A stretch of 64,000 bases of DNA from an uncultured Candidatus Poseidoniales archaeon (GTDB lineage Archaea > Thermoplasmatota > Poseidoniia > Poseidoniales > Thalassarchaeaceae): positions 83,632 to 147,631 of the forward strand of contig CAZUBQ010000001.1 of the NCBI GenBank assembly GCA_964618995.1, given 5' to 3'. The notes beneath the pieces were generated by a model. The model had not been told where the DNA came from, ran no database searches, and was given only the letters and a program-made list of their open reading frames with translations. The first letter of the stretch is position 1. Each line of letters begins with the position of its first letter. The position numbers and the translations under genes are program-made. This document shows positions 3,499-57,900 of the stretch, piece after piece.

Positions 3499-4695
3499 TC
3501 ACCCGCAGATGGCGGTTTCAATCAGTTCGGCGAGTTCATTGAGGTTGGAGATGGGCTTTGGTTCTGAATCATCACTCACCCACATCCCTCTCCTATCGGT
3601 ATCCCCTGACACTTCCTCGAGATGATTCGCCACCACGCCGTCCAGATCATGCTTCTTCAGCAGCGATGTCGCAGAGTCGATGAGTTGGTTGTCACTGACT
3701 CCGGATTCGAGTTTGAAAGCTATGCGGCAACTGTCACTGCACAGTGATGTCAATGCATCGAGATGCTTAGTAGAGCGCACCAACCCCAATCCCCATTGTT
3801 CCGCACCACTGGAGACCTTCTCTGATTCAGGCTCAGCGACTACATAGTCGAGTACCGCGGCAGCATGCACCCAAGCCGTTGGAGCATTGTCCGATGCAGC
3901 AAGCTCCATCAATGCACTGAGCATGTCATCGGGGTCATGTGCACTGATTACTGATGGTAGTTTGAATGTAGGGTGACTAGTTACTTCTCCAGATACAATA
4001 TCCACTGAATGGCCCATTCTATAGAGGTGCTCGGCAATCACCCACCCCGTTCTGCCCGACGATGAATTGGTAATCCAACGGACAGAATCCACTCGACTTC
4101 GATTTCGTCCCAGTGTCACTACAACACGCCTTCTCTCAGGTCTACGTGAATTGACCAGGTGGCAAAGATCAGCGACAATTTGCACCGCGTCAGGTGTCTT
4201 GTAGCGACCTTCCTCCCGCTCACCCCAAACGACCGACGCCCCTTCAGCGACAACAGCCTGGCACAAATCATCGGTTACTGGGTCGTCGAACAGGTCATCG
4301 TGCATCGAGGGAACGAACATGATTGGGTCGAGTCGCCCACGCGCAGCGCTCAGGGCCATCTGGATAGGGGTGTCGAGAACGCCATGAACGTGGGCTGCCA
4401 GGCAACGCCTAGTCGCGGGAGTGACAAGGACGACATCATGGGGGTCCAGTTGCGCCATCTCAGCACCCCACTCGATGATCGGTTTGACTCCACCAGCCCA
4501 TTCTACAGCGAGTGGGGAAATCACCCTCTGGGCGGAGTGGGACATGATTACAGTCACTATTGCCCCGTGCCTACGTAGTTCACGCAGCAGACGTACTGAA
4601 TCTACTGCTGCGATGCCTCCGCAGATACCCAACAGTACCTTGCAATCCGACAAGGATTCTGAACGGCGATCTACAGTACGGTCCACTGAATCCAT
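3499..4695 (-). CDS. coaBC: Bifunctional phosphopantothenoylcysteine decarboxylase / phosphopantothenate-cysteine ligase
   Basis: N-terminal flavoprotein domain (KVLLGICGGIAAV...PAT) and C-terminal DFP/CoaB domain (VTLGRNRSRVDSVRWITNSSSG). Start placed at internal ATG 4695 (MDSVDR...). Confidence 0.8.
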   Translation of the reverse strand: MDSVDRTVDRRSESLSDCKVLLGICGGIAAVDSVRLLRELRRHGAIVTVIMSHSAQRVISPLAVEWAGGVKPIIEWGAEMAQLDPHDVVLVTPATRRCLAAHVHGVLDTPIQMALSAARGRLDPIMFVPSMHDDLFDDPVTDDLCQAVVAEGASVVWGEREEGRYKTPDAVQIVADLCHLVNSRRPERRRVVVTLGRNRSRVDSVRWITNSSSGRTGWVIAEHLYRMGHSVDIVSGEVTSHPTFKLPSVISAHDPDDMLSALMELAASDNAPTAWVHAAAVLDYVVAEPESEKVSSGAEQWGLGLVRSTKHLDALTSLCSDSCRIAFKLESGVSDNQLIDSATSLLKKHDLDGVVANHLEEVSGDTDRRGMWVSDDSEPKPISNLNELAELIETAICG

Positions 4696-4727
4696 GGTAA
4701 CCGGCTTCGGGGCTACGGTCTCCCTCT

Positions 4728-5378
4728 TTGGGACTGTCGGTGCGGGTGACATTGAAGGAGTCACCGCACAAGCAGGTAAATGTGACCACAACCGAAGGAC
4801 TGGAACCGGTCCATCGCCAACTCTCATCGTTGCTGTTGTCAACGACCATTCTGGTCTACGCACTCATGATTTTGCTGGCGGCATCTAGCCCGGAGTTGAC
4901 GAGACCATTCTGGCTAGCTATCTCGCCCGTGATAGTGATTGGAGCGGTGGCTCAACTCTTCGTGTGGAGGAAATTCCGCTTACGAGACATTGCCATCCAG
5001 CACGTCAAACTCAGTTGGGTTGTAGTATGTGGGGCGTGCAGTATACTCGGGTTACTTCACTTCGTCCGCGCCCTACAGGGAAACCTCGTCGACTGGCTAC
5101 TTGGGGGTATGTTGTTCTACCTCGCCTGGTCAATGTTCAGTCGATTCAGCACCCTCGATAATCCGGTATACAGGGGATGGTACTCTGGGAGCAGCAGTGG
5201 TTCGTCTCCACTTCTAGACCTCAAACCTGGAGAGATGCTCGCTGCTTGCCCTCACTGCTCCTCTCTTCTTGCAGTCAGGCCCGAGCAATTGGGCGCGGAC
5301 GAGCGGTGTCCGAACCATGATTGTGGAGGGAGACTGGTGTTGGAATCCACTCTCTCGCGACTCGCCGAAGAGGAGTGA
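4728..5378 (+). CDS. Hypothetical polytopic membrane protein with C-terminal zinc ribbon
   Basis: About 4 TM helices followed by CPHC...(18)...CPNHDC. No family recognised; N-terminus uncertain. Confidence 0.4.
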   Translation: MGLSVRVTLKESPHKQVNVTTTEGLEPVHRQLSSLLLSTTILVYALMILLAASSPELTRPFWLAISPVIVIGAVAQLFVWRKFRLRDIAIQHVKLSWVVVCGACSILGLLHFVRALQGNLVDWLLGGMLFYLAWSMFSRFSTLDNPVYRGWYSGSSSGSSPLLDLKPGEMLAACPHCSSLLAVRPEQLGADERCPNHDCGGRLVLESTLSRLAEEE

Positions 5379-5396
5379 ACGAATACAACTCTTGAA

Positions 5397-6425
5397 TCAC
5401 GTATCAGAGATTGTGAGGTTCTTCCAATACTCTTCTGGAACTTCCTGTGCTAGCCTGAGACCACCTAGGGCCCCTAGTTGGACAGGGTCCTCGACGATAT
5501 GCACCTCAATCTCACCCATGTCGGCCAACAGCTCCTCGAGCGAAGCACCCAGGCCACGGATGGCAGAGCCGCCACCAGCGAGGATGATGTTCTGCCTGAA
5601 CTGGTCGTGATATTCCGGGTTGGATTCAGAAAGCAATTCCTTGATGTTTGCAACAATTGGACCGATTATCGCTTCGCACGCCGTCTGCATGCACTCAGTG
5701 ATATCAAGCGACATCGATTTTCCTTCGATGGAGAACTCGACGATAATCGGGTCGTCTGGGGGTGATGTAGAGGTGAATGAGTGTTGCTCCTTCCACCGAC
5801 GCGCCATGTCCTTCGTGATCTGGGCACCAGCGTATTTCCGCTGAATCTCCTGAATCAACATAGAGTCTATGACATCGCCGCAACTATTGATGTGCAACTG
5901 ATCCTCAGGCTTTGGTATAGTGCCATAGACGCGACAGATATCTGTGGTACCTGCACCGATGTCAACAACGATGGTGTGCTCAAGCATGTCCAGTGCGTAG
6001 GCGACGGCGAAAGGTTCCGAGATAATCATGCAAGCGTTCACCGTGCCTGCTGCTGCGTCAAATATCGCAGTCTTGTCTACGTGGCTTGCCTCGGCTGGAG
6101 CACCGATAACGGCGACTACGCGACCGTAACTCTCGGGGTCAGTGAGGTTGATCATGTGGTTGATGAAGTGGGCGATGAACTTCTTGTCCTCAGGAGAATC
6201 CTTGATCACCCCATGTTCCAATGGGCGATAGAGATTCAGGGCCAGCCTGTTTTTGAGTGCCTCTTCACCGAAAAGCACGTCGCGTCTCAGGAAATTCTTG
6301 GCAATCGAATCTTTGGGAGTCCCTATGACTGTCAGCACCTCTTCCTCATCTTTCTCGCTGGAGACAACGACCGAGCGGAACGTTCCGAGGTCAATTCCGA
6401 TGTAGAGTGTGTCTGATGTTGCCAA
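5397..6425 (-). CDS. Actin-fold ATPase (MreB/ParM/Ta0583-like archaeal actin homologue)
   Basis: Phosphate-1 motif YIGIDLGTFRS, phosphate-2 motif VVDIGAGTTD, adenosine motif ILAGGGSAIRGL. 342 aa. Apparent TTG start at 6425. Confidence 0.65.
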   Translation of the reverse strand: MATSDTLYIGIDLGTFRSVVVSSEKDEEEVLTVIGTPKDSIAKNFLRRDVLFGEEALKNRLALNLYRPLEHGVIKDSPEDKKFIAHFINHMINLTDPESYGRVVAVIGAPAEASHVDKTAIFDAAAGTVNACMIISEPFAVAYALDMLEHTIVVDIGAGTTDICRVYGTIPKPEDQLHINSCGDVIDSMLIQEIQRKYAGAQITKDMARRWKEQHSFTSTSPPDDPIIVEFSIEGKSMSLDITECMQTACEAIIGPIVANIKELLSESNPEYHDQFRQNIILAGGGSAIRGLGASLEELLADMGEIEVHIVEDPVQLGALGGLRLAQEVPEEYWKNLTISDT

Positions 6426-6516
6426 GAGTTCTCACCGTCCACTCAAGGGGGGGGAGGGCGGTATATCAACCATATCCAATCCACCACTCTCAATTGTTGT
6501 CAGTAGTCGCTGATTC

Positions 6517-7530
6517 TCACAACCAGATGCGGCACTTGTCACAGAACCAACCACCCCGCTGCTCTTGAAGCGGGGTGTTACCTCCGCACGCATGGCATTC
6601 CTTCAATGCACTGCTTCCGAACAGGCTGGTGATGATTCTGATGTGACGTCGGTCAGAGATGCCGAGGTTCTGACGCATAGCCCATAGCAGTTGATCCTCA
6701 CTTGGTGTGATGATTCCATCTTCCAACATCAGTGCAACTGCGGCGGTGTAATCGTCTTCTATGGCCACGTCATCTGGGTCGAGTGACACACCACCTTTTT
6801 CTCCCACCAGATCCTTTCCTCCAGGGTCGTCGATGTACAGAACCATACTAGCTGGGTTCAATCTCGTGTCTCGAAGTTCAAATGCAACAGAGGCGCCATC
6901 ATGGTGCGCATGAACCAACTTGCTGTTTCGATTAATGACCGTGGCTATGTTACGGGCTGTCTCCTCGGCGTTTCGTCCTCGTCGCCAGCCATGGGCATCA
7001 TCATCATCGAAACCGTAGAACTCTGTCCCGATACCCGGATACTCGATGCGCACCTCTTCACCCCCGTCGAAATCGTTGTTCACAACAGTGAGTGATGCTA
7101 CCTCGGTCTGCAGCAGGTTGTCGTCTTCATCGAATGCGATGAGGAGGGGTTTCCGCTCATCCTGTGCTGCGTCGTAATGACCCTGCATACCATCTACCCA
7201 TTTGGACTGTAACCGCGTCAGCGCCCCCTCCTGCTCAGAAGAAAGTTGCTGATCGATACCCAATACACGAGAGATCTCGCCGCCACCCTCTAATTCTGAC
7301 TTGAATTGTTCAATCAGCTCAGAATCGTGCGAGACGGATGCCCTGTCGGATTTGGATGCAACTGGAGAGTAATCCGGATCGTTCCATTCGTATGAGCAAC
7401 GTGAGCAGGAGAGATATCCAGGAATGGACGACTGTGTTTTGTCCCCCCCGCATCGTGGACAGTCCCCTCCATCCTTGACCTCGATGTTCTCGGCAGCCTT
7501 GCGGCGACCGCGGCGGGGATTGAGTCCCAT
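6517..7530 (-). CDS. Hypothetical protein with N- and C-terminal zinc ribbons and an acidic central region
   Basis: Start at ATG 7530 (MGLNPRRGRRK...). N-terminal CPRCGG...CSRC and C-terminal CHACGG...CDKC. Co-directional with and 91 nt upstream of the actin-like gene. Confidence 0.5.
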   Translation of the reverse strand: MGLNPRRGRRKAAENIEVKDGGDCPRCGGDKTQSSIPGYLSCSRCSYEWNDPDYSPVASKSDRASVSHDSELIEQFKSELEGGGEISRVLGIDQQLSSEQEGALTRLQSKWVDGMQGHYDAAQDERKPLLIAFDEDDNLLQTEVASLTVVNNDFDGGEEVRIEYPGIGTEFYGFDDDDAHGWRRGRNAEETARNIATVINRNSKLVHAHHDGASVAFELRDTRLNPASMVLYIDDPGGKDLVGEKGGVSLDPDDVAIEDDYTAAVALMLEDGIITPSEDQLLWAMRQNLGISDRRHIRIITSLFGSSALKECHACGGNTPLQEQRGGWFCDKCRIWL

Positions 7531-7586
7531 CAAAAGTGAAGCCTGCTCTGTCACATATAGGACTATGTGTACTATCAGGGGACCCC

Positions 7587-8726
7587 TCAGGTGTCGATTG
7601 AAGAGAGTACTGTGGCGATGCCCATACCGCCACCGATACACATAGTTGCCAACGCATATCGCACTCCTTCTCGCTTCAGTAACGCCGCAGCCTTGCCCGT
7701 GACGCGCGCGCCACTGGCTCCGAGAGGATGGCCGATGGCGATTGCGCCCCCATCCTGATTCAGGAGGCGATCATCAATACCGAGTTCATCTATCACAGCA
7801 AGTGACTGGCTAGAGAACGCCTCGTTCAGTTCGATGACATCCATGTCTCCTATCGTTAATCCCGCTCTATCCAGAGCCTTTCGAGTGGCAGGAACTGGTC
7901 CGATTCCCATTATCTCTGGTGCGACGCCGGCAACAGCGGTACTGACTATGCGCGCCAACGGAGTGAGGCCCCGCGCCTCTGCGAACTCTTCGGAAGTGAC
8001 GACCACGAATGAAGCACCGTCGGTGAGCGGCGAGGATGTGGCCGCCGTAACCACACCATCGTCAAGGAAGGCGGGCGGAAGTCCAGCCATTTTCTCCAGG
8101 GTTGTGTCAGCGCGAATGCATTCGTCAGCGGAAACCTCGCCTACATCAGTGTCAATCACAACAATCTCGTCATCCAATCTGCCAGCATCGCGGGCCGCGG
8201 CCGCCTTCTGATGGCTGGCAAGGGCGAACTCCTCCTGGCGGATGCGAGGGATTCCGTGCAATTGCGCTACGTTCTCAGCCGTGATTCCCATGGCGATGTA
8301 CGCCTCTGGATACTCCTCCTGCATCTGTGGATGCGGACTGCGGTTGAAACCACCTCGCTCGACTCGACTCATCGTCTCAATGCCTCCACACACGAAACAT
8401 TCTCCCGCGCCCAGCATGATTGCTCCTGCAGCGGCGTGGATTGTCTGCATGGAAGAACCGCACAAACGGTTGATGGTGGATCCTGGAACGGTAACCGGTA
8501 ACCCTGAGCGATAGGTCAGTATGCGTCCAAGGTTCAATCCCTGCTCACCCTCAGGATAGGCGCACCCGAGTAGCAGATCTTCCACATCATCTCCTTCAAG
8601 CCCACACCTAGAGAGTAATTCACGCACCACAGGAGCTGCGAAATCTTCGGGGCGTACGTGTGTGAGGCCACCCCTATGAGCAGGAGTGAACGGGGAACGA
8701 GCGTATCCGACGATGACAGCCGCCAT
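7587..8726 (-). CDS. Acetyl-CoA C-acetyltransferase (thiolase)
   Basis: Thiolase motifs are present (NRLCGSSMQ active Cys, GHPLGASGAR, CIGGGMG). Start at ATG 8726 (MAAVIVGYARSPF). Confidence 0.85.
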   Translation of the reverse strand: MAAVIVGYARSPFTPAHRGGLTHVRPEDFAAPVVRELLSRCGLEGDDVEDLLLGCAYPEGEQGLNLGRILTYRSGLPVTVPGSTINRLCGSSMQTIHAAAGAIMLGAGECFVCGGIETMSRVERGGFNRSPHPQMQEEYPEAYIAMGITAENVAQLHGIPRIRQEEFALASHQKAAAARDAGRLDDEIVVIDTDVGEVSADECIRADTTLEKMAGLPPAFLDDGVVTAATSSPLTDGASFVVVTSEEFAEARGLTPLARIVSTAVAGVAPEIMGIGPVPATRKALDRAGLTIGDMDVIELNEAFSSQSLAVIDELGIDDRLLNQDGGAIAIGHPLGASGARVTGKAAALLKREGVRYALATMCIGGGMGIATVLSSIDT

Positions 8727-8831
8727 GTCTCGCCGACAGGTGAGGCCGCCATAATCATTCATGACCGCTGCTGCAGTGCCATCATCGCCATACCGTTGGG
8801 GTTATCAGGAGGTCACCGGTCGGCCGCTCCG

Positions 8832-9551
8832 ATGATTCGACAATGCCGACTTCACGGGCACTTTGAAGGTGAACTATGCCCCGCCTGCAACGACGAGGGA
8901 AAGTTCGTCATGAACGGCCGCGAGAGAGACAGTATAGCGCGCAGGCTCGCTCTGATTCTAAGGCACGCACCAGAGAAGTTCGACCTAGAGATGGACCTGA
9001 ACGGCTGGGTAAGCATCCGCGACCTCTCGAACGCGCTTTCCAAGCGTGACAAGCGACTTCACTGGCTGCGCGACAGGCACATCGAGGCGATTGCAGAAAT
9101 CGATGAAAAGGGCCGTTACGAAATTCGGGGAGGGATGGTCAGAGCTACGTATGCACATACGGTGGAAATTGAACTGGATCTTCCCACCGATCTGATTCCT
9201 GACCTGTTGTTCTATCCCTGCTCTGAAGAAGAATCGGAGGTGCTGCTCGAGACAGGAATCAAGCCCGGTGGACGACGCTGGGTCCATCTGTCGAAGACTG
9301 TGACCGCTGCATGCAATGCCGGCCGAGTACACCATGACCATCCATTGATCATCGAGGTCGATACAATTCAGATGCAGGCTGATGGGAACACCATCTTTCG
9401 TGCTGGCACAACCGTCTACCTCACCGAAGATACTCCTGCAGAGTACTGCCAACTGCTTCCCGCTGACAATCGTGAGTACGAACTCATGGTAGATTCCTGG
9501 GGAGACGCTGAGCAACTGTCTGAAGTCACCACTTCATCCGAAGAGGAGTGA
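8832..9551 (+). CDS. kptA: RNA 2'-phosphotransferase Tpt1/KptA family
   Basis: The LRHAPEKFDLEMDLNGWVSIRDL and HLSKTV...RVHHD-type motifs resemble Tpt1. Start chosen at ATG 8832, outside the overlap with thiolase. Confidence 0.65.
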   Translation: MIRQCRLHGHFEGELCPACNDEGKFVMNGRERDSIARRLALILRHAPEKFDLEMDLNGWVSIRDLSNALSKRDKRLHWLRDRHIEAIAEIDEKGRYEIRGGMVRATYAHTVEIELDLPTDLIPDLLFYPCSEEESEVLLETGIKPGGRRWVHLSKTVTAACNAGRVHHDHPLIIEVDTIQMQADGNTIFRAGTTVYLTEDTPAEYCQLLPADNREYELMVDSWGDAEQLSEVTTSSEEE

Positions 9552-9554
9552 GTT

Positions 9555-9884
9555 TCACTGGTAGCCGCCGCACGCGGGGCAGAATGGAACATCGGTCTCC
9601 AGATTCTCGTCACAGTGTCGACAGACCGATGGGTCCCCCTCAGGCACAGTCCCATCCTCATCATCACTTGTTGCGAGCAGGCGCACGCTCGGCACCTCTT
9701 CGAACGGCTCGATGTCTTCCGAAGCGCGGGCCATCACATGCGCCTGGAACTCCAATGCCTCCTGCAACGCGGCCTCCAATCGCCATATTCGTTGTTCACG
9801 CAATCGCTTGTCCTGAATCAGTTCCGCTTCCACCAGTTCTGCTTGCAGATGCCGTACGAACTCATCTGTAGTGGCTTCGGTCAT
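9555..9884 (-). CDS. Small coiled-coil protein with C-terminal zinc ribbon
   Basis: ATG at 9884 (MTEATTDEF...). Helical, charged middle region. CRHC...(11)...CPAC at the C-terminus. Confidence 0.4.
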   Translation of the reverse strand: MTEATTDEFVRHLQAELVEAELIQDKRLREQRIWRLEAALQEALEFQAHVMARASEDIEPFEEVPSVRLLATSDDEDGTVPEGDPSVCRHCDENLETDVPFCPACGGYQ

Positions 9885-9967
9885 GAGGCGGCCAAACGAC
9901 CGAGGCAAATGAAACCGGCGGAACGTCGACCAAATCTCAATAGCGGGACGGCTTCGGTTCCCAATTG

Positions 9968-10825
9968 ATGACGAGCCCCCATACCCAGGCCTCATGGGTC
10001 TTGATCAAGTTCGGAGGGGGTCTCATCACGGAGAAGCAGAATTTGTTGACCGTACGCAAGCAGGTCATCGATTCTCTGGCCGGTGCGGTATCCGAAATCC
10101 AAGTAGCAGGAAAATCACCCATCGTAGTCCACGGAGCCGGCAGTTTTGGGCATATCAAAGCAAAACGGTGGCGACTGCACGAGGGGAGAATAGAAGGGTG
10201 GACTCCAGAATCAAGCAATGATGAATACATCATGAGTCAGGATGAGGCTTGCCTCTCTGTGCATAGGGACATGCTCAACCTGAATGGGCAGGTTGTCGAA
10301 TCCCTGACTCGGGCAGGACTCAGCACCTCTGTTCACCCTCCACGAGACTGGGCCAATGGAACCGGACCCGAATTCAAGGGGGAATTCATTGATTTTCTCG
10401 ATCCCGATAGTGACACGATTCCAGTATTCTTCGGGGATGTAGTCCACTGCCCGAATGACGACTTCGGCATACTCTCAGGAGATGATGTTGTGTTCCGTCT
10501 GGCGAATGAACTCGGAGGCGTCAGTGCTGTGGTGTTCTGCATAGGGGGTGCACAGGGATTGCTCACAGCCCCCCCCAATGTGACTGGTTCTGAATTGGTG
10601 ACAATCTGGTCAACTGACATGAACCTGCATGGTCACCATGATAGCGCAATTGATGTCACTGGTGGCATTGCCTTGAAGGCAGCTCGTGCTGGAAGCATCT
10701 CCCAGGTGGTAGACGATGTCTGGTTCGTAAACGGTGAACACCCTAACAGAGTGGTCGAGGCGGCGCTGGGTGGGGAACCAATGGGCACTCGAATAGTCCC
10801 TGCATCTGGACAACCACTCGATTAA
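9968..10825 (+). CDS. ipk: Isopentenyl phosphate kinase (amino-acid-kinase fold)
   Basis: LIKFGGGLITEK, VVHGAGSFGH and GGIAL motifs typical of archaeal IPK. ATG at 9968. Confidence 0.8.
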   Translation: MTSPHTQASWVLIKFGGGLITEKQNLLTVRKQVIDSLAGAVSEIQVAGKSPIVVHGAGSFGHIKAKRWRLHEGRIEGWTPESSNDEYIMSQDEACLSVHRDMLNLNGQVVESLTRAGLSTSVHPPRDWANGTGPEFKGEFIDFLDPDSDTIPVFFGDVVHCPNDDFGILSGDDVVFRLANELGGVSAVVFCIGGAQGLLTAPPNVTGSELVTIWSTDMNLHGHHDSAIDVTGGIALKAARAGSISQVVDDVWFVNGEHPNRVVEAALGGEPMGTRIVPASGQPLD

Positions 10826-10859
10826 ATGCCCACGCACCCTCGAGAGAGCCGTGAGCGAG

Positions 10860-12551
10860 ATGGGTGAAGACACTGCCGACATACTCGGCGACGCGTACGA
10901 CAGTTCACAAACGGGTATGATGGATGAAGAGTGCATTCTCATCGACGAACATGACAACCCCCTCGGGCCCGGTAGCAAGGTCCTTTGCCACCTAGGGGAA
11001 GGACGACTACATCGCGCTTTCAGCGTTTTGTTGTTCAACTCAGAGGGGCGATTGTTAATCCAGAAACGCGCAGGTAGCAAGATCACCTTCCCAGGGGTGT
11101 GGGCGAACTCCTGTTGTAGCCATCCACTACATACTTCAGAGGAACTTGAGGAGGGGGTAGGCGTCAAACGTGCAGCGATACGCAAACTCGGACAGGAACT
11201 CGGAATTTCGCCTGAACAAGTTGCCGTAGATGACTTTCAATTGGTATCTAGGATGCATTACCACGCACGCGCTGATGAGCGCTGGGTCGAGCATGAAATC
11301 GACCATGTACTGGTGATTCAAGCGGATGTCGACATCGAGGTCAATCACAATGAAATCGAAGAGATTCGATGGGTCACTGCGGACCAACTCGCTGACATGA
11401 TATCAGGCGCCCCAAACAACAGCACTGTGTTCGCACCTTGGTTTTTGGAAATCTCAGACCGATTCCTCCCCTCCTGCTGGGACAATCGGGATGACCTCGC
11501 TGACGATGGACTCATCCATGAAGTGGGCCTTCTGACTAGCGCAGGCGCTGCTTCCGACGAAGGATCGCTGCTCGAAGCTCTCGTCGTCCATCGCGACAGG
11601 GTCGAGCAAGCCATCGATGAAGCCCTCGCCAAAACGATGCATGTACGTCTGCGCTCTGCCATGCAGCACCTATTCATGGGCGGTGGAAAACGTCTGCGTG
11701 CAATCCTTCCATGGCTGGTTGCGGACGCCGCTGGTGATGCCCACCAGGGACTATACGACTTGGGCGCGGCGATTGAGATCATCCACAATTTCACCTTGGT
11801 CCACGACGACATCATGGACAATGATGCCCTACGTCGTGGTAGACCTGCTGTGCACGTCGAGTTCGACAATCCTACGGCCATCAATGCAGGCGACGCCATG
11901 CTCGCACTGTCATTCGAGGTGCTGAGCGAATCCGAGGCAATCTCCGACGACCACTTCCGTCGTTTGGTGCAAATTATCGGAAGCATGGTCAGACGTGTAT
12001 CCGAAGGGCAACAGATGGACATGGATTTCGAGAATCAGGATGATGTGTCAGAGGATGCTTACATGCGCATGATAGCGGGTAAGACTGCAGCCATGTTCCA
12101 AGCCTGCTCTGAATGCGGTGCAATGCTCTCAGGAGCCGATAACGAGACGGTCATGGCAATGGCTGAGTGGGGAATACAACTCGGATTATGCTTCCAACTG
12201 ATGGATGATCTGATTGATGTTACAGGCGACTCCGAAACCCTCGGCAAGCCTGCAGGTAGTGATATTCTTGAGGGAAAGAGAACCCTCATCGCTATCCACG
12301 CGCTGCAACAGGATCAGGACATTCTCCCAGTGTTCCATGAGTTGTACGGTAGTTACTCCGACGATGTGAATGATGAGCGAATGAAGCAGGCCCTAGCCGA
12401 ACTCCGGACTGCAGGCTCGATTGACCACGCTCTTTCGCGCGCCATGCACCACCATTCCCGAGCGCATGAGTTGCTCAATATTCTTCCAGTAACCGGGGCA
12501 CGTGACCTGTTACGGGAACTCACCGACTGGCAACTGGTGAGGATATCCTGA
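10860..12551 (+). CDS. Fusion protein: type-1 isopentenyl-diphosphate isomerase (Nudix) N-terminal + geranylgeranyl/polyprenyl diphosphate synthase C-terminal
   Basis: N-terminal ~200 aa: HRAFSVLLFNSEGRLLIQKRAGSKITFPGVWANSCCSHP...E (IDI-1 Cys/Glu motifs). C-terminal ~340 aa: first DDxxD in LVHDDIMDNDALRRGRP, second in FQLMDDLID. Single uninterrupted ORF. Confidence 0.8.
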   Translation: MGEDTADILGDAYDSSQTGMMDEECILIDEHDNPLGPGSKVLCHLGEGRLHRAFSVLLFNSEGRLLIQKRAGSKITFPGVWANSCCSHPLHTSEELEEGVGVKRAAIRKLGQELGISPEQVAVDDFQLVSRMHYHARADERWVEHEIDHVLVIQADVDIEVNHNEIEEIRWVTADQLADMISGAPNNSTVFAPWFLEISDRFLPSCWDNRDDLADDGLIHEVGLLTSAGAASDEGSLLEALVVHRDRVEQAIDEALAKTMHVRLRSAMQHLFMGGGKRLRAILPWLVADAAGDAHQGLYDLGAAIEIIHNFTLVHDDIMDNDALRRGRPAVHVEFDNPTAINAGDAMLALSFEVLSESEAISDDHFRRLVQIIGSMVRRVSEGQQMDMDFENQDDVSEDAYMRMIAGKTAAMFQACSECGAMLSGADNETVMAMAEWGIQLGLCFQLMDDLIDVTGDSETLGKPAGSDILEGKRTLIAIHALQQDQDILPVFHELYGSYSDDVNDERMKQALAELRTAGSIDHALSRAMHHHSRAHELLNILPVTGARDLLRELTDWQLVRIS

Positions 12552-32329: not shown

Positions 32330-35300
32330 CTATCGTCCTCGAATTCTGTCGAGAACCTTGCCCCGCAGCGGCATGTTGTGTTCCCAGGCGAACTCCTTGA
32401 TCACGCGGACCGCCTCCTTCTCCAGCTTGGGGTCGGTCACGAAATCTGTCACGTCGATGATGTCGTCCCTCGTATTCGCCTTGAAGGCGGCGATAGCATC
32501 CTCGTTGTGGAACACTAGGTAGGCCGAGCCGAAGCCGAACCGCTCGCGCAGCAGAGCCGAGAAATATGGGGCGAGCGGGTCTGAGGGGGGGAGTACGAAA
32601 TCCCTCATTGGCGGTAATTCCGAGGCATTCTCGAGCATCTCTTTGCGCCCCCAGCAGATCTCGAAGATGTCTTCGAGCAGGAATCCCTTGATGAACACGC
32701 CATCGTCCTCCAGTTGCTTGAGCACATCCATCACATCCTCTGGCTTGAACGGCCTGCCAGCGAGCCTCTCGAACTGCTTCAGGGTGATGACGGGAATCTC
32801 CTCTATCAGTTCACGCAGATACTCCTGCTTCAACTCCAGAACATCGACGTCCGTCAAGGGGTCGACGGTACGGAAGCCACCTCGGTAATCCTGCACCAGG
32901 TGCCCAGAGCGGATGAGTGGTTGGGCCAGTTTGCGGAACTCGGAGCGGGTCATCGCATGCCTGTCCATGAACAGTTGGGGATCGGAATTCTCTGAGAAGA
33001 ATTCGAGCACGTCGAGCAACTCCTCGTCAGGTGGCTGGTTGCGGATGGTGAGCAATCGCTGGAAGTGCTGGTAGGGAGCGTATACCCGATGACTGCGCAG
33101 GTTGGTTCCTTGGTGCAACTGGCTCGCAGTCGCCATTGACTTCAGGTCGACGCGGTACATCTCGCATCTGCCGCGCAGAGCGAAATCGTCGCGCACCTCA
33201 GCAATCTGCCTGACTGCCAACGTCTCATTCTCGCTGCGCGTCTTCTGGTGCAGGTTCGTGTTGTAGAACAGCGTACGAATCGACTCGTTTGGCGGACGGG
33301 GGTCCATCACACCGCCGCGCATCATGCGCTCACCGTCGCCGACGAAGCGGAATCCTATGTCCTCAAACGCCTTCTTGGTGGTGTCATCAGCCAGCGCAAT
33401 CGACTCTCCATTGAAGTTAGTCAACAGTGCCACGTCGACCAGAGTGTCCCTGTAGTTGTTCAGTAACCGTTCGAACTGCTTCGTGAACTCGTCCAGATAG
33501 GCGTGTGGAATGTGGATGTCCCTAACCTCAAGGTAGTCGTTGACCTTGTACATCAGGATGCGACCAACAGGGTCCACTCCCTTGAACACGGGATAGTACC
33601 ATCCCTGCTTGAGGACGTAGCGCACCTCCTGGATGAATCTGGAGCAGAACGGGTCGGACTGTGTGAGAATGCGCATGTCGCGGTCCTCGCGCACGCTCTT
33701 GCGCACTTGGATGGCGTCCTCGGGCAAGCAGTAGAACTCAGTAAGTTCAGGCTGCAGCGCCAGCACCACAGAAATCTTGCCGGCATCGATTAGTTCACGG
33801 ACGGCCTCATCGACTTCTTCGGGTGAACGGCTGATGTAATTGCCAAGTGTGTAGCGCTTGACCGGACCGATACGCTTGATCAGTTCAAGAAGTGCATCGA
33901 GGAATGGCATCGGCTCGTAGACCTCGTGCACACGATGGAACAGCGACAGGCTGCGCTTACGTTCAGGCAATTCCTCGTACTGCTTGACGAATACCATCTG
34001 GCGCTCGAGGTTGGCGAGGGCGTGTTTAGCGTGGTTCATCACATGTTTGTGCTCGTCACCCTTCGGGATGTCGATGAACAGGTCCTTCCTCACCACATTC
34101 TCTCCTGCTGGCATCTTGCTGAGTACCTTGGTCTCCATTTCGCCGACCCACGGCTCTGGCCTCAGGCCCAGCAACAGTGGAAGTTGATCGATTTTGGTGT
34201 AGCCCACCCGATTGTGCAACAACCTCCCCATGACCACGTCGGGGTCATGTTTGAGGTCCTTCCAGTCGGCGAAACGGTACTCTGATACGCGGTCCAGCAG
34301 TTCGTGCATCTTCTGGAACATGACGTGAGATTCGAAAGCCTCCAACGGATCCTCGTGGAGTTTGAAGGACTTGGACAACAGCATATTCTGGAGCAGACGA
34401 TATTCAATCACTTTCTCCTTACCGCCGGTTATGTAGTGTTCATCCACTTTGAGAATAAATTCCCCTTCGTCCGTTCCTCTATAGAATCCTATTGAAACCA
34501 CGTTGCGTACTTCCAGTTCATGCAGCATGTTCTCGATCATCCTCTGTGGGAAGGGTAACCGTTCATCCAATTGCTCCAGTTGCTGTGGACCTTCACTACC
34601 CAGCATGTCAACCAATTTCACACGCAGGCACTCGTGTGGGTCTGACAAGGGTACATCCGCCCATGAACTGGGATTGTTTCCCTCGAATCCGTCGGCCATC
34701 TTGTATGTCAGCCCGCCAGTGTAGAGTTGGCGCAGGTCGTCCAATTCTCCCGCACCTTGGCTAGCGAGGACGCCTAGGGTACCGTGAATGTCCGCCATTC
34801 GACCTGAGAACCATTTGCCATCGACCTGATCGTTCCCAGTTCCTTTGATCTTGGTAATATCGTCCCGTTTGAGCAGTTCATCCCGCCACTGGCGCAGGAT
34901 GGCGTTGTCGATTCCCTCGAGCTTGTCGGCATACAGTGGATTCTGTAGGCCACTTTCCAGCCCTCCACCCATGTCCATGAGTTTCAGCAGACCGTCGGCG
35001 TCCTCTGGCACGGCCACTTTGTCGCGGTAGTACTGGTCGACCCCCATGGAATCGAGGTCGGTTGCAAGAGCACGGCGCCCGAGCAACCGGCGCAGAATCT
35101 CCGGGTCGATGTCCTTGATGAGGTAGGCTCGGGTGCGCAGCGCAAGCAGGTCCTCGAACGCTGACATGTAGAGGTTCATGCCCAGTGGCGATGGAATCTT
35201 CACCTGAGTGTGAATGATGCGCGCGTCGCCTTTGATCACATCATCGATGAACGATTCGAGTCCGGGCAGGTCAAGGTCGTGTTGCAGAATCTCGTTGCAC

Positions 35301-37639
35301 GCCTCTCGCACCAGCAGAGAATCATCCATGGCTCGGTGGTTGCGGAACAGCGTCTCCGCCTTCTGCTGGAACTGCTGAGGGGAGACCTCCTCGGCGCCGA
35401 CGCGTCGCGGAATTATCAGACTGCGTCCAGCAACCTCGCGGAAGCGTTTGGCGAACAGTTGGGTGTCGAGCAGATGGGTTTCAATCAAGCCCCGGTGGTC
35501 ATTGGTGGCGAACAGATGCGGGAACGACTCCGGTTCAATCTCATGTGACATTTTTGCGAGGAAGCCGTTCTCATCGAACGACAGTTCGTGAACATCGATG
35601 TCATTGGCCTTCGCCAACCCGGCGAAGAAGTATCCCAGCGTGAGGTTGAACGCTCTCCCCCTACAGGTAGTGACCATGTACGTCGGGATTCCGACTTGGA
35701 TCTGCTCCAGCAGGATGCGATTGTGCGCTGGAACAGTGAACGTTTCCGCAAGATGCTGCTCCAGGAAGACGGCGACACCGTTGGCTACTGGTTGAGTCAA
35801 ACCATATGCATCGGTGAGCAGCTTACGCGGGTCCCGCTGCCTTCGAAGGGCGGTTACACAAGCCCCGAGTAGGCTGAGTACTGCACCCGACAGTTCTGGG
35901 CTGCGGCTCTGTGCCTCACCAGACCAGGAGGGGACGGTAGGGCGAAATCCCGTGACTGGGGAGACGTTTACGCGCGAACCCTGAATGGACTGGATGCGGT
36001 AGGTGGTTCCACCGAGTAGGACCACATCTCCACCGCGAAGGTTCTGTACGAACGAGGAGGATAATTGGCCGACCATCGAACCGTCGGTGTTGAGCACGAG
36101 GTAGTTGTTGTCTGGAGCGATGGTGCCGATGTTGGTGTAGTAGATCATCTGCGAGTACCCGCGCTTGCCGAACGCGTTGTCCTCCCATTCGACCCAGATG
36201 CGATTCTCTTCCTCGAGCATGTCGAGAACCTCGATGTAATCATCGTAGGGAAAATCACGAAACGACCATGTGGCGGTTATGAGAGAGTAAGCCTCGTCGA
36301 TGTCCTGCTCGCCGATGATAGTCAGCCCGACGATGAACTGCGCCAGCACGTCGAGAGAGTTTTCCGGAAAACGCAATTGGTCCATCTCACCTTCCATGAT
36401 GGCTCCCTGCAACGCCACCAACTCGATGAGGTCGTGCGGACTGCTGGGCAGGAATCGCGCCCTCGGCACGCCACCTACGTGATGTCCCGCCCTGCCGATG
36501 CGCTGCAGACCTGTGGTAATCGAGCCTGGCGAACCAAGTTGCACCACCAGATCGACGCTGCCGATGTCGATGCCCAACTCGAGCGAGGAGGACGAGACCG
36601 CGCAGCGCAGTTCTCCATCCTTCAATCGCTGCTCGACCTCGAGGCGAATCGTCTTGTCCATCGAACCGTGATGTGCCTGGATGGCGTCGCCATCCCAACC
36701 AATGATGCGCCTGAGTCTGGACACAATCTCCTCTGTCATCGCTCGTGTGTTTACGAACACCAGCGTGGTCGTATGTGCCTCTACGAGGTCTCGTATACGT
36801 TCGACGTTGGCATCGAGGATTTGCTTGTGATCGAACTGCGGGTCGTTGAAGCGCTCGTGTGGCAGAATGATGTCCAAGTCGAGTTCGCGAGCCCCGGAGA
36901 CCTTGGCGATGCACACTTTCTGGTCATCCCCTTCTTCTTCGCGACTGTCCGAGGAAACAAGGTAGTGGGCGACCTGTTCGAGTGGTTCCATGGTCGCTGA
37001 GATACCGATGCGCTGCACTGGTGTCTCGATGACGGTGTCCAGTAGTGAGAGGGAGAGGGCGAGGTGCACACCGCGCTTGGTCGGCACGAGGCTGTGCATC
37101 TCGTCAATCACCAACCATGACAGTTGGGAGTAATGTGGGCGGAATCTCTTGGCGGCGAGAGTAAGGGCCAGGCTCTCAGGGGTGGTAATCAGGATGTGCG
37201 GAGGCTTGCGGAGCATCTTCTGACGCTCGGATTGACTGGTATCTCCAGTTCGCAATCCAACTCGAATGTCTTTCGCGCGGCTGGGCAGGAAGCGCTCCTT
37301 GATCTCGGTCAGCGGCCCGATGAGGTTCTTCTGGATATCATTAGCGAGCGCCTTGATTGGTGAGATGTAGACACAGTATACTCGCTCCTCCAGTTCTCCG
37401 TCCATAGATTTTCGAATCAGGTTATCGATGATTGACAGGAACGCGGTCAGGGTCTTGCCGCTGCCTGTGGGGCTACATAGCAGTAGGTGCTCACCACCGA
37501 TGATACTTGGAATAGCCAACTTCTGGGGATCTGTGAAATCGGGGAACGTGTCCTCGAACCAGTCCCGTACAGGTTGGCTCAAGTCAGCGTATATCGACTC
37601 GGATTCGGAGTACGAATCCAAGTATACTGTTTCAACCAT
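32330..37639 (-). CDS. lhr: Lhr-type (large helicase-related) DExH helicase with very long C-terminal region
   Basis: Lhr N-terminus (FPDFTDPQKLAIPSIIGGEHLLLCSPTGSGKT), DEMH box, motif VI (GRAGHH), then WH and Lhr-specific domain, followed by a further ~900 aa. 1769 aa from ATG 37639; an upstream GTG at 37675 is also possible. Confidence 0.85.
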   Translation of the reverse strand: MVETVYLDSYSESESIYADLSQPVRDWFEDTFPDFTDPQKLAIPSIIGGEHLLLCSPTGSGKTLTAFLSIIDNLIRKSMDGELEERVYCVYISPIKALANDIQKNLIGPLTEIKERFLPSRAKDIRVGLRTGDTSQSERQKMLRKPPHILITTPESLALTLAAKRFRPHYSQLSWLVIDEMHSLVPTKRGVHLALSLSLLDTVIETPVQRIGISATMEPLEQVAHYLVSSDSREEEGDDQKVCIAKVSGARELDLDIILPHERFNDPQFDHKQILDANVERIRDLVEAHTTTLVFVNTRAMTEEIVSRLRRIIGWDGDAIQAHHGSMDKTIRLEVEQRLKDGELRCAVSSSSLELGIDIGSVDLVVQLGSPGSITTGLQRIGRAGHHVGGVPRARFLPSSPHDLIELVALQGAIMEGEMDQLRFPENSLDVLAQFIVGLTIIGEQDIDEAYSLITATWSFRDFPYDDYIEVLDMLEEENRIWVEWEDNAFGKRGYSQMIYYTNIGTIAPDNNYLVLNTDGSMVGQLSSSFVQNLRGGDVVLLGGTTYRIQSIQGSRVNVSPVTGFRPTVPSWSGEAQSRSPELSGAVLSLLGACVTALRRQRDPRKLLTDAYGLTQPVANGVAVFLEQHLAETFTVPAHNRILLEQIQVGIPTYMVTTCRGRAFNLTLGYFFAGLAKANDIDVHELSFDENGFLAKMSHEIEPESFPHLFATNDHRGLIETHLLDTQLFAKRFREVAGRSLIIPRRVGAEEVSPQQFQQKAETLFRNHRAMDDSLLVREACNEILQHDLDLPGLESFIDDVIKGDARIIHTQVKIPSPLGMNLYMSAFEDLLALRTRAYLIKDIDPEILRRLLGRRALATDLDSMGVDQYYRDKVAVPEDADGLLKLMDMGGGLESGLQNPLYADKLEGIDNAILRQWRDELLKRDDITKIKGTGNDQVDGKWFSGRMADIHGTLGVLASQGAGELDDLRQLYTGGLTYKMADGFEGNNPSSWADVPLSDPHECLRVKLVDMLGSEGPQQLEQLDERLPFPQRMIENMLHELEVRNVVSIGFYRGTDEGEFILKVDEHYITGGKEKVIEYRLLQNMLLSKSFKLHEDPLEAFESHVMFQKMHELLDRVSEYRFADWKDLKHDPDVVMGRLLHNRVGYTKIDQLPLLLGLRPEPWVGEMETKVLSKMPAGENVVRKDLFIDIPKGDEHKHVMNHAKHALANLERQMVFVKQYEELPERKRSLSLFHRVHEVYEPMPFLDALLELIKRIGPVKRYTLGNYISRSPEEVDEAVRELIDAGKISVVLALQPELTEFYCLPEDAIQVRKSVREDRDMRILTQSDPFCSRFIQEVRYVLKQGWYYPVFKGVDPVGRILMYKVNDYLEVRDIHIPHAYLDEFTKQFERLLNNYRDTLVDVALLTNFNGESIALADDTTKKAFEDIGFRFVGDGERMMRGGVMDPRPPNESIRTLFYNTNLHQKTRSENETLAVRQIAEVRDDFALRGRCEMYRVDLKSMATASQLHQGTNLRSHRVYAPYQHFQRLLTIRNQPPDEELLDVLEFFSENSDPQLFMDRHAMTRSEFRKLAQPLIRSGHLVQDYRGGFRTVDPLTDVDVLELKQEYLRELIEEIPVITLKQFERLAGRPFKPEDVMDVLKQLEDDGVFIKGFLLEDIFEICWGRKEMLENASELPPMRDFVLPPSDPLAPYFSALLRERFGFGSAYLVFHNEDAIAAFKANTRDDIIDVTDFVTDPKLEKEAVRVIKEFAWEHNMPLRGKVLDRIRGR

Positions 37640-37756
37640 GATACTTCTCGCCTTTGAATTCGGCGGACAGCGCACCGAGGCGATATATCAATCATTCCCT
37701 ATTCAAATGAAAATCGATTACCCTCCCATCGGTTCAGCGGATGAACAAGGTGGGTT

Positions 37757-54957: not shown

Positions 54958-57900
54958 TCACTTGTGATGCGCCCAGTATCCTGATTCGTCGCGGAACCAC
55001 CATACGTCGCTGTTCTCGGGCCATTCGAGCCACTCGACGCCATCGTCAGCAACCTCGCCCTGAGTCTCCTCGTGAGGTGCTTCATAATCCTCTGTCACCA
55101 CTCCTTCCGAGGCCTCCTCAGCCCAACTCCCAGCAGCGTCATCCACCACCTGCAGCGCTTGGTCCAACTTTCCACCGCCCGCTCGCTTGCGCTTCGGTTT
55201 GCGCGTGTTGACAGTGACTGCAACGACCAAACCGACAATCACCAGGATTGCCAGTGCGATCGCCACCCACAGGAATGTAGGCAACCCGGAGCCGGATTTG
55301 CCACCGTCGGTTACGGGTCCGGTCCAGATTTCCGCAGGGCAGCCATTCGCTAGTGAGGAGGAGTCGTCGGGGCACTTGTCGGGCGCGGTGGCTCCGGGAA
55401 TGAATTCCCCTGGCCAGCCATACTGCCGGCTTGAGTTCCATTCAGGGTCGTCCCAGTTGTCATAGAATCCATCACCATCGCTGTCAAACCATTGTGTTGA
55501 ATCATAGATCAACGCATCGGCACCATCACTCAGTCTCCAGAGGCTGTCAGGGTCACTGTACCCGTCGCCGTCGCTGTCCGGGCATCCTCGCCGATCGCCG
55601 GTCGAATTACCAACTCTGTTCCTGCAGTCGTCACCGTTCGTGCCAGACGAATTATCCCCCATGCCGTCGCCATCGGTGTCTCTTGTCTGGGTAGGGTCGT
55701 GGGGGAAAGCGTCGTTCGGATTGTTGACTCCATCGCCATCGTCATCACGCTGACTGTCGGAGCACCCGTACCAGTCGGCCATCGCTACCTCGGAAGTGGG
55801 TGTGTCCGGGCAGTCGTCATAGGCGTCGTTGATACCGTCGAAATCGCTATCCCGTTCGGATGGTCCGCATCCGTCTTCGTTCACATCGTCAATCTCATGA
55901 GGAGGTGTTTCGAGGCAGTCATCAGGGTTGTTCCCTTCCCATCGATCTCCGTAGCCGTCGCCATCGTCGTCCTCCCATTGGGTCGATTCATCGGGGAAGT
56001 CGTCATCGATGTCCGCATAACCATCACCATCGGAATCAGGGCAGCCAAAGCGCCCTAGTTCAGTGGATGTACCGGCTTGAAGTGGACATGAGTCGGGCTG
56101 AGTACCCATCTGCTGGTCCGCGAAGCCATCCCCGTCCGTGTCCGACCACTTGAACGGATCATTTGGCCAAGCGTCACCCTGCTCATTGACTCTTAGCAGG
56201 CCATCTTGGTCGAGGAAGTAACTGTGGTTGTCGCCGTATCCGTCTCCATCGGTGTCGACCCATTGGTGGTGGTCGAGAGGAAAGGCATCAGCCCCATCGT
56301 CGGTCAGCCAGTCGCCATCCTCGTCGGACCACCCATCACCATCGGTGTCCGGGCATCCGAAGCGGTCGTAGTGGGATGTCCCGGCGATGTCTGGGCAGGC
56401 GTCGGGCTCCCACGCGCCAATGGTCTGGTTGTTACCGTATCCGTCCTCATCACTATCGAGCCACTGGGTCGGTTCATCTGGGAAATCGTCATCGATGTCC
56501 GCGACCCCATCACCATCCGCGTCCGGACAGCCAATCGTGGGCACTGTACTGTTGCCCCACTGTGTGATGCAATCGTCATCTGAGTTTGCATAGCCGTCAC
56601 CATCGTCGTCTAGTTGGTACTGAGCACAGCCCCGTTCGTCAGCCACCCAACCCTCGAGTGTGTCGGCACAGTCGTCCTCACCGTTCCATACACCGTCATT
56701 GTCGTCGTCGGGGAGCAGGTATCTGGCATCGAACCCGATACGAGCCCATGCGAAAACTCGTGCATACAGGCTGAGTCGGACGAACCCCATCTCGTCCCAC
56801 TCCGCCTGCGCCGTGTCGTTGAGCATCCACTCCAACAGTTGGAGGCGTTCCTGAAGTTCCGCGGAATCGATGATGAGGTAGTGATCATCTTGTACCGGCC
56901 ACGTACCGTTCTCGCTGGCCGAAACGGACGGTTGGATTGCTTGACCGCCACCGTAGAGCGCGTCCTGCACGCCATGCGTCCAATTGTCGACGATAGGTAC
57001 GTGGTAAAGGTCGGGGGAGTCGAGCGCCACGCGCATCTCAGTGAACCCGAGCAGGTCATCCTGCTGGCTGACGAAGTAGACTAGTGAACTGCGCAACTCC
57101 TCCTCGAACCTGTAGCGAGCAGTGGAACCGACGAAGAAGCCATCTGGGAACTGACAGTCACTGCAGGTGAACAGACGCTCCATCATCATCGGCACGGAGC
57201 GATTGTCCCAACGTCCTGCAACGTGAAACGGCTCCTGGTTGCATGAGGAATGGAGATCCCCCCACTCCTTGATTCCGTCATTGTCAAGATTGGGGACCAC
57301 CGACATCAGCTCAATCCCCGGCATGTCCCCAGACTGCACCATTGTCGAGACTGAGGCTCCGGAGAGGAACCATCTCAGTTGCGCCATCGACAGTCCTCCA
57401 ATGGTGCTCAGACAGGATTCGGCGGCTCCGCCTGACTTGACAAACAGGGAGGCGGGCATACGACCGATGGGCACCTCAAGGAGTTGCGAAGGGGTCTGAG
57501 TGCAGTTCAAGAGTCCATTTGTTGACCAGTTGGCTGTAGGGGAGGCTATGTGGTGAGGGACTCCATGAGTGATGGATCCGATGATGCCGCCATCGTCGCA
57601 GAGGGTGTTCGACATCAACGTGGTGGTCATGTTTTTGTGCGACACGGGGCGGCCGTCGGTGCTCGGCCAGTTCTCTTGCCAACTGTCGATCATAATTTCG
57701 CCCGTGATGTCTCCTTTCAACTGATGGAATGTCTCTGGCGACATGTACACCGTGGTGCGGCCACGTACCTGGGCGAACGCCATTTTGTTTCCATCGGGAG
57801 ACCACGCGACAGCCCTGACTCCGCGACTGCTACCGCCACCACCACCGCTGAACGATCCGAATTCTGCTATTTCGTCTGAATAGTTACTGATGTTAGCAAC

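Follow-up and report, generated by a model that had tools for sequence, protein, structure and literature searches.

A MamK-type actin of Poseidoniales archaea and the orphan zinc-ribbon protein encoded beside it: a candidate cytoskeletal pair linked by position

Actin-like cytoskeletal genes usually have an accessory gene next to them, and the genes for ParM and ParR, AlfA and AlfB, MamK and MamJ, and crenactin and the arcadins are all adjacent. A comparable arrangement is found in the 64,000-nucleotide (nt) stretch analysed here (the window), chromosomal DNA of a Marine Group II (MGII) archaeon of the order Poseidoniales, whose closest named relatives are Thalassarchaeaceae. It encodes an actin-like ATPase (the actin) and, immediately upstream on the same strand, a protein with a zinc ribbon near each end (here called the partner, for its position). 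The uncultured MGII archaea are among the most abundant archaea of the surface ocean. Like ParM/ParR, AlfA/AlfB, MamK/MamJ and crenactin/arcadin-2, the window pair sets an actin-like ATPase beside a small or medium-sized, non-enzymatic protein with flexible conserved segments. Unlike them, it lies among housekeeping genes of the chromosome rather than on a plasmid or in a genomic island, and its promoters appear to be separate.

Among single actins, MamK (PDB 5ljv, 5jyg and 5ljw) offers the closest comparison. The phosphate, adenosine and connect motifs of MamK and its C-terminal (L/V)P..YW..L tail are conserved in the window actin. The two differ in that the host here is an archaeon, in an Asp at the interface position held by A278 in MamK, and in a neighbour that is not MamJ-like. 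The genes around the window actin (thiolase, Tpt1, CoaBC, prolyl-tRNA synthetase (ProRS) and EF-2) are not those of a magnetosome cluster, and no magnetosome (mam-type) family was found among them or among the 16 window open reading frames (ORFs) scanned. BeeR (PDB 8r2n), a Verrucomicrobial actin related to MamK, forms three-stranded tubes (PMC11929497); like the window actin it is non-magnetotactic and belongs to the wider MamK-related group, and it is the second-best PDB match. Identity to BeeR is 34%, however, and the window actin lacks both the disordered N-terminal extension of BeeR and its insertion after SEPF. Salactin, reported to be related to MamK (PMC10746226), and volactin (Pfam PF25229 and PF25216) are likewise archaeal actin homologues, but their models give the window actin only 55 bits (cut-off 400) and 26.5 bits (cut-off 35), respectively; they are a different family.

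Sequence and model comparisons place the window actin, over its full length, within the MamK branch of the polymerising actins; it is a core chromosomal gene of Poseidoniales, where it was recovered from 62 species loci. The NCBIfam MamK model NF040964 is its top family (E 3.8e-109, 364.8 bits, profile positions 1-331 of 335); the score lies below the curated cut-off of 400 bits, and under a strict cut-off rule the protein would be called a near relative of MamK, not a certified member. MamK leads the next NCBIfam family by about 140 bits (BeeR 221, MreB 87-100), and the NCBIfam models for Hsp70, EutJ, FtsA, ParM and crenactin give 15-34 bits. A sequence search of the PDB puts MamK 5ljw, 5jyg and 5ljv on top (E about 1e-75), with BeeR (1e-45) and MreB (1e-15) after them, and BLASTP aligns the actin with Magnetospirillum MamK at 40% identity across 334 amino acids (aa) with 3 gaps. 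The DLGT, DIGAGTTD and AGGGS motifs are present, and E136 and D154 align with E143 and D161, the catalytic ATPase residues of MamK. The AlphaFold2 model has a predicted local distance difference test (pLDDT) value of 76.8, with subdomain IB poorly defined; it matches MamK 5ljv and 5ljw at template modelling (TM) scores of 0.77-0.81, BeeR at 0.73 and MreB at 0.65-0.70, and its top fold matches are polymerising actins without exception. The gene is the slowest-evolving of its neighbourhood (mean distance 0.25, against 0.40 for ProRS), as fits a protein constrained on many surfaces. It represents a new archaeal branch within an actin family already known.

An earlier note, made from the letters of this DNA alone, had recognised an actin-family protein here by its IGIDLGT, DIGAGTTD and LAGGGS motifs, and had named an Hsp70, sugar-kinase or PilM-type identity as what would undo its reading. 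The motifs stand where the note put them (read in the sequence as LYIGIDLGT, VVDIGAGTTD and ILAGGGS), and MamK comes out best in family, PDB-sequence and fold searches alike. An Hsp70, sugar-kinase, PilM or EutJ identity was rejected: Pfam HSP70 gives 20.2 bits, below its cut-off, DnaK models reach about 20-25 bits (cut-offs 648-823) and EutJ 34 (cut-off 182), and the top folds are polymerising actins. Membership of the crenactin/arcadin group was set aside at 15 bits against a cut-off of 630. The ParM model scores 15 bits against 417; a ParMRC-type segregation locus was rejected on finding no ParR-type match and no iterated centromere repeats, and a plasmid or viral ParM system on the chromosomal housekeeping context.

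A second MamK-type actin exists in the same order. Scanning metagenomes with a MamK-family alignment recovered four loci (L063-L066) of a paralogue, here B, the window actin being A. Identity between paralogue B and the window actin is 45%, and the NCBIfam MamK model gives B 336-342 bits; exact-sequence look-ups returned the names 'Candidatus Poseidonia alphae', 'Poseidonia sp.' and 'Candidatus Poseidoniaceae archaeon'. On this evidence the MGIIa family, at least, carries two MamK-type actins; the contigs found for P0406 and P0040, sought as a test of both paralogues in one genome, did not coincide. A crude neighbour-joining tree without support values has A and B as sisters within the MamK clade, apart from the BeeR clade and an MreB-like outgroup. 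Candidatus Poseidonia alphae contigs (L143-L146) have FtsY, prefoldin, ribosomal protein LX and a membrane subtilase before actin B, and after it a coiled-coil protein of 422-428 aa, geranylgeranylglyceryl phosphate (GGGP) synthase, an ABC transporter and a rhodopsin. Loci L064-L066 have the core of this arrangement, and L063 is without the coiled-coil gene at that position, so that this gene stands beside B in three of four metagenome loci and in all four Candidatus Poseidonia alphae contigs. Its product, which finds only weak SMC coiled-coil matches and ends in an acidic tail, may be an accessory protein of paralogue B.

Two further MamK-family loci from metagenomes (L072:2899-3996 and L073:2857-3999; GC content 0.41 and 0.51) have in common a conserved upstream gene of 365-380 aa that overlaps the actin start. 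L072, the only one of the two scored, reaches 407 bits on the NCBIfam MamK model, above its cut-off. These loci may represent another actin-plus-neighbour arrangement, in bacteria.

The partner appears to be an undescribed protein restricted to Poseidoniales. No Pfam, NCBIfam or PHROGs family matches it above cut-off, zinc-ribbon matches being sub-threshold. Its homologues fall into 194 clusters, all of about 336 aa; among the 120 of these that were listed, identities are 52-88% and the organism names are all Poseidoniales, MGII or Euryarchaeota. A profile search of 1.84 billion representatives returned one full-length cluster at 50% identity, together with fragments, and no full-length relative outside Poseidoniales; beyond that family only the last ~85 residues match other proteins. 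In viral contigs the partner profile had no match, and no partner relative was found near 20 other MamK-family or BeeR-like metagenome loci, four of them of paralogue B. For an orphan the protein is strongly constrained, with about 75 invariant columns and a mean distance of 0.59, similar to that of Tpt1.

The partner carries exactly eight cysteines (C24/C27/C42/C45 and C312/C315/C330/C333), all invariant or nearly so across 41 homologues. Its AlphaFold2 model, built from 41 sequences (pLDDT 75.7), lays it out as an N-terminal ribbon, a conserved helical third of low confidence (residues ~58-129) and a confident block (140-337). The N-terminal ribbon has sub-cut-off matches to Zn_ribbon_IS1595 and L37ae and a weak Foldseek similarity to ribosomal L37ae ribbons. 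In fold searches the helical module that precedes the C-terminal ribbon resembles known dimerisation domains (ENT/EMSY, KaiA, RsbU-N). Local likenesses of residues 256-307 to ENT/EMSY and TerB modules, and of the ribbons to L37ae, TFIIB and IS1595 types, all stay below curated cut-offs, and the central domain and overall architecture have no described counterpart. The last ~85 residues (window 6532-6765, minus strand) recur, at 26-40% identity, as a module of unrelated membrane proteins and Ser/Thr kinases (P0286, P0353, P0360, P0306, P0320 and P0352); these kinases carry four or five tandem ribbons, the small membrane proteins have in common a QNIGEYIAGG.VDI.DSVVQRS motif, and a homologue search with the C-terminal module of P0306 returned nothing. 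The protein is non-enzymatic, multi-domain and probably dimeric, with conserved flexible segments, and segments that are conserved yet of low pLDDT are typical of binding regions.

Much of what the earlier note had said of this protein was borne out: a gene of ~337 codons with Cys4 ribbons at both termini does lie directly upstream of the actin and in the same direction, and it belongs to no described family. The 'long D/E-rich middle' did not survive inspection. Asp and Glu make up 17.8% of the partner, its isoelectric point of 4.67 (4.62 for the actin) equals the lower quartile among 37 long window ORFs (median 5.0), and its acidity thus exceeds the local background only a little; nor is the middle of low complexity, for residues 140-337 are strongly conserved and predicted to fold with pLDDT of about 86 or more. 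On the same grounds (a conserved folded middle and a pI at the local lower quartile) a MamJ-like acidic adaptor was rejected. So was the identity with ribosomal protein L37ae/L43A that JGI annotation gives, which rests on 17-24 bits against cut-offs of 21.9-95.8, covers the N-terminal ribbon alone and would equate 337 aa with about 90.

Linkage was assessed in 62 Poseidoniales species loci, 59 of which contain both genes; in the other three the contig breaks off within 1,100 nt upstream. In 56 of the 59 (95%), across both families and deep lineages, the partner directly precedes the actin on the same strand, and the adjacency is kept in two loci (L029, L031) where genes on both flanks have been reshuffled. 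In the window a spacer of 91 nt separates the two ORFs. This spacer holds a TATA-like box, and 60 of 60 loci have a motif of the TTGATATA, TTGAAATA or TTCATAAG type 30-45 nt (mode 43) ahead of the actin start, whereas only 4.2% of random 80-nt windows contain one. The conserved box (TTGATATACC or TTGAAATACC, about 43 nt before the start) is followed by GGTG or GAGG, and 45 of the 60 loci have a Shine-Dalgarno-like motif at -16 to -4. Upstream of the partner, boxes related to the one in the window (CTGATATG, CCATATCA) were seen by eye at a similar distance in most loci. The actin box is likely to be the gene's own archaeal promoter, and the partner box is likely to be another, with a leader that is short or absent. 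A sigma-70 and terminator scan was uninformative, as the host is an archaeon.

Whether the actin assembles by itself, and what it is for, has to be weighed against its database names and against one residue. JGI and NCBI name it MreB, its database annotation reads 'rod shape-determining protein MreB', and Pfam MreB_Mbl does give 97.9 bits, above its cut-off. An MreB orthologue that determines rod shape is nevertheless very improbable: the NCBIfam models for MreB fall far short (TIGR00904 86.8 bits against 365.75, NF010539 100.2 against 293; cut-offs of 293-366 for the MreB families, where the MamK score is 365), MreB structures rank behind those of MamK and BeeR, and no mreC, mreD or rodA-type gene is a neighbour. 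MGII cells, moreover, are cocci about 0.7 µm across by microscopy (PMC6864105). According to a review, archaeal actin-family genes tend to accompany an elongated cell shape (PMC7613921), a trend to which this actin would be an exception. The residue is D274 (codon at window 5604-5606), which aligns with A278 of MamK and so places a natural Asp where the mutation A278D halts MamK polymerisation; PDB 5ljw is titled 'MamK non-polymerising A278D mutant'. This, like the MamK score below its cut-off, counts against the reading as a filament-forming MamK-type actin. Across 25 A-type sequences D274 is conserved to at least 90%, and it could weaken the longitudinal contact, so that assembly would depend on a cofactor (the neighbour, or the second paralogue, which could co-assemble as MamK and a MamK-like protein do in Magnetospirillum AMB-1 in work cited in PMC10653835), or the protein could be a non-filamentous ATPase. 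We think an actin without autonomous filaments quite unlikely. Its nucleotide-binding and catalytic motifs are all intact, conservation over the whole surface is very strong, as is typical of polymer formers, and the position itself varies, with Ala in MamK, Pro in paralogue B, Val in BeeR and, as a charge reversal, Lys in the deep A lineage L056. BeeR, with its Val, polymerises (PMC11929497). We read the effect of A278D as dependent on context, and this variability as softening the objection; the residue still lowers our confidence, and what is left is a good probability, well above even, that the actin polymerises.

Whether the neighbour is a direct functional partner is the harder question, and here our estimate falls just short of an even chance. 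The 95% adjacency says little beyond general synteny, since six control junctions between functionally unrelated genes of the same region are kept in 77-96% of loci (for example IPK/ccZn 45/47, Tpt1/partner 48/51, actin/TMZn 54/58 and TMZn/DFP 54/56), and linkage beyond this background was not seen. In three species (L050, L051 and L054) an inversion of the Tpt1-thiolase-partner segment has moved the partner to the opposite strand, at a distance of 2.2 kb, with both genes intact. Because each gene has a TATA-like box of its own, the two are probably transcribed separately and do not form a simple operon. A mirror-tree comparison (31 loci, 8 gene families, 28 pairs) is not distinctive: the raw correlation of actin and partner is 0.82 and the partial correlation 0.29, rank 6 of 28. 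Centromere-like repeats in 4500-10100 are limited to two-copy, chance-level ones, and family and fold searches surfaced no similarity of the partner to known actin-binding proteins, ParR, AlfB, MamJ and the arcadins included. All of these count against a dedicated pair. The first four are also what would be expected if the two genes were merely neighbours in a collinear 10-kb housekeeping region, the actin being a MamK-type filament protein whose real partners, if any, are encoded elsewhere, and the zinc-ribbon protein serving something unrelated, such as binding nucleic acid or another protein. An N-terminal ribbon of a kind (L37ae, TFIIB, IS1595) that usually contacts nucleic acid, a C-terminal module common to kinases and membrane proteins without a visible actin link, and a second MamK paralogue that has no such zinc-ribbon neighbour all point the same way. 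Such a coincidence of position is a serious contender in our view, though we would stop somewhat short of favouring it. Against it stand the general habit of actin-like cytoskeletal genes to keep an accessory gene beside them, the adjacency that survived rearrangement in two loci, the apparent confinement of the partner to Poseidoniales, the order in which this actin clade occurs, and the mirror-tree itself, where the partner ranks first, if marginally, among the seven other families for partial correlation with the actin (actin-Tpt1 0.275). A link is favoured, too, by the modular build and the strong constraint of the partner, and paralogue B likewise has a structural-looking neighbour without a Pfam match. 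The functional link thus remains positional. Of the earlier note's candidate cytomotive module, the part that held is an ATPase of the polymerising MamK family with a neighbour co-conserved in related genomes; the partnership is unproven, as synteny no better than that of the control junctions, promoters, inversion and mirror-tree give it no distinct support, and the partner resembles no known actin adaptor. The module is a reasonable hypothesis rather than a finding.

The following mechanism could be envisioned. ATP-bound actin monomers would assemble into MamK-like filaments, and hydrolysis through Glu136 and Asp154 would drive filament turnover. Such a filament is more likely to be a track for intracellular positioning or segregation than a determinant of rod shape, because MGII cells are small and coccoid, and magnetosome genes are absent from the neighbourhood and from the window ORFs scanned. 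For an accessory or adaptor protein peculiar to this lineage the partner is the leading candidate: it may dimerise through its ENT-like three-helix module, touch the filament through the conserved, poorly ordered N-terminal third (a basic N-terminal peptide and residues ~60-130), and hold cargo or another protein with its two zinc ribbons and central domain, each gene being expressed from a promoter of its own. In its widest form this proposal would give Poseidoniales a lineage-specific cytoskeleton of duplicated MamK-type actins, each with a private new accessory protein (for A the two-zinc-ribbon protein with its flagellin-D2-like and ENT-like parts, for B the 420-aa coiled-coil protein), which organises or segregates the contents of small coccoid archaea; as a whole we consider it unlikely.

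Were it true, the zinc-ribbon protein would represent a class of actin-filament adaptor not described before, one that might license the assembly of an actin carrying the Asp that blocks MamK. Both proteins are small and soluble and can be studied without culturing the host, and they offer an entry point to the role of MamK-type filaments outside magnetotaxis; such work would also show if the orphan next to the actin acts as an adaptor of a new type. Should the neighbour prove unrelated, a corrected annotation and the archaeal actin branch remain. Incomplete searches of the literature found no mention of MreB or MamK in MGII genomics and no description of a zinc-ribbon partner of an archaeal actin.

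Table 1. Features of the actin-partner region and of the paralogue B loci. Positions are those of the window unless a locus is given.
Feature	Position	Strand	Remarks
TMZn, membrane protein with C-terminal Cys-rich ribbon	4728-5378	plus	tail-to-tail with the actin, 18 nt between stops
Actin ORF, MamK-family actin-like ATPase, paralogue A	5397-6425	minus	342 aa, TTG start
Shine-Dalgarno-like GGTGAG	6431-6436	minus	before the actin TTG start; read from the sequence
TATA-like box TTGATATA	6462-6469	minus	in the spacer, 44 nt ahead of the actin start codon
Partner ORF, two Cys4 zinc ribbons	6517-7530	minus	337 aa, ATG start
Partner, C-terminal Cys4 ribbon (residues 312-333)	6532-6597	minus	C-x2-C...W[YFW]C-x2-C type; invariant cysteines and W328
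Partner, three-helix ENT/TerB-like module (residues ~256-307)	6610-6765	minus	
Partner, central alpha/beta domain (residues ~140-250)	6781-7113	minus	invariant NxFDGGEExRxEYPGxGTEF, GWRRGR and DDPGG motifs
Partner, N-terminal Cys4 zinc ribbon (residues 24-45)	7396-7461	minus	C24/C27/C42/C45 invariant or nearly so
TATA-like CTATATG	7554-7560	minus	~29 nt upstream of the partner ATG; read from the sequence
ccZn, acidic protein, probably helical, with C-terminal Cys4 zinc ribbon	9555-9995	minus	146 aa; weak Pfam zinc-ribbon matches
Paralogue B	L063:3998-5002, L064:1232-2248, L065:3989-4993, L066:3998-5002; L143-L146:6001-7005		334-338 aa
Coiled-coil protein without Pfam match	L065:5068-6333, L066:5083-6363, L064:2326-3612; L143-L146 ~7090-8366		421-428 aa; directly downstream of B

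The gene calls agree with those already present in public assemblies, where both proteins occur with the same starts on contigs as long as 215,103 bp. An alternative GTG-initiated partner ORF reaching 7641 would overlap the thiolase gene, which ends at 7587. At NCBI 90%-identity cluster mates are named 'hypothetical protein', and the names on close relatives of both are Poseidoniales, Thalassarchaeaceae, Poseidoniaceae and 'Marine Group II'.

Around the pair lie archaeal chromosomal housekeeping genes (ProRS, CoaBC, thiolase, Tpt1 and aEF-2), with an isopentenyl-phosphate-kinase-like (IPK) gene, named by eye, also in the neighbourhood, and Lhr helicase, TiaS and adenylosuccinate lyase farther out in the window. 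TMZn, downstream of the actin, has no family match in Pfam, NCBIfam or PHROGs and evolves fast (mean distance 1.41); it could be a membrane anchor or a mere neighbour. ccZn is likewise syntenic across the order, and a stretch of 5.3 kb holds three zinc-ribbon proteins without known function. One Poseidoniaceae lineage (L147-L156:441-1319) has an additional ORF of 279-292 aa without a Pfam match between thiolase and partner, and thiolase itself is missing from this position in about 20 other loci.

Elsewhere in the window, a 566-aa ORF (10851-12551, plus strand) resembles by eye a fusion of an isopentenyl diphosphate (IPP) isomerase of the Nudix type and a polyprenyl (geranylgeranyl diphosphate, GGPP) synthase. 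The minus strand encodes a 1781-aa Lhr-type helicase whose C-terminal region is weakly AlkZ-like (32330-37675), a 1339-aa protein with WD40 repeats (54958-58977) and a 1638-aa protein with GH115_C and Ig-like domains (58989-63905).

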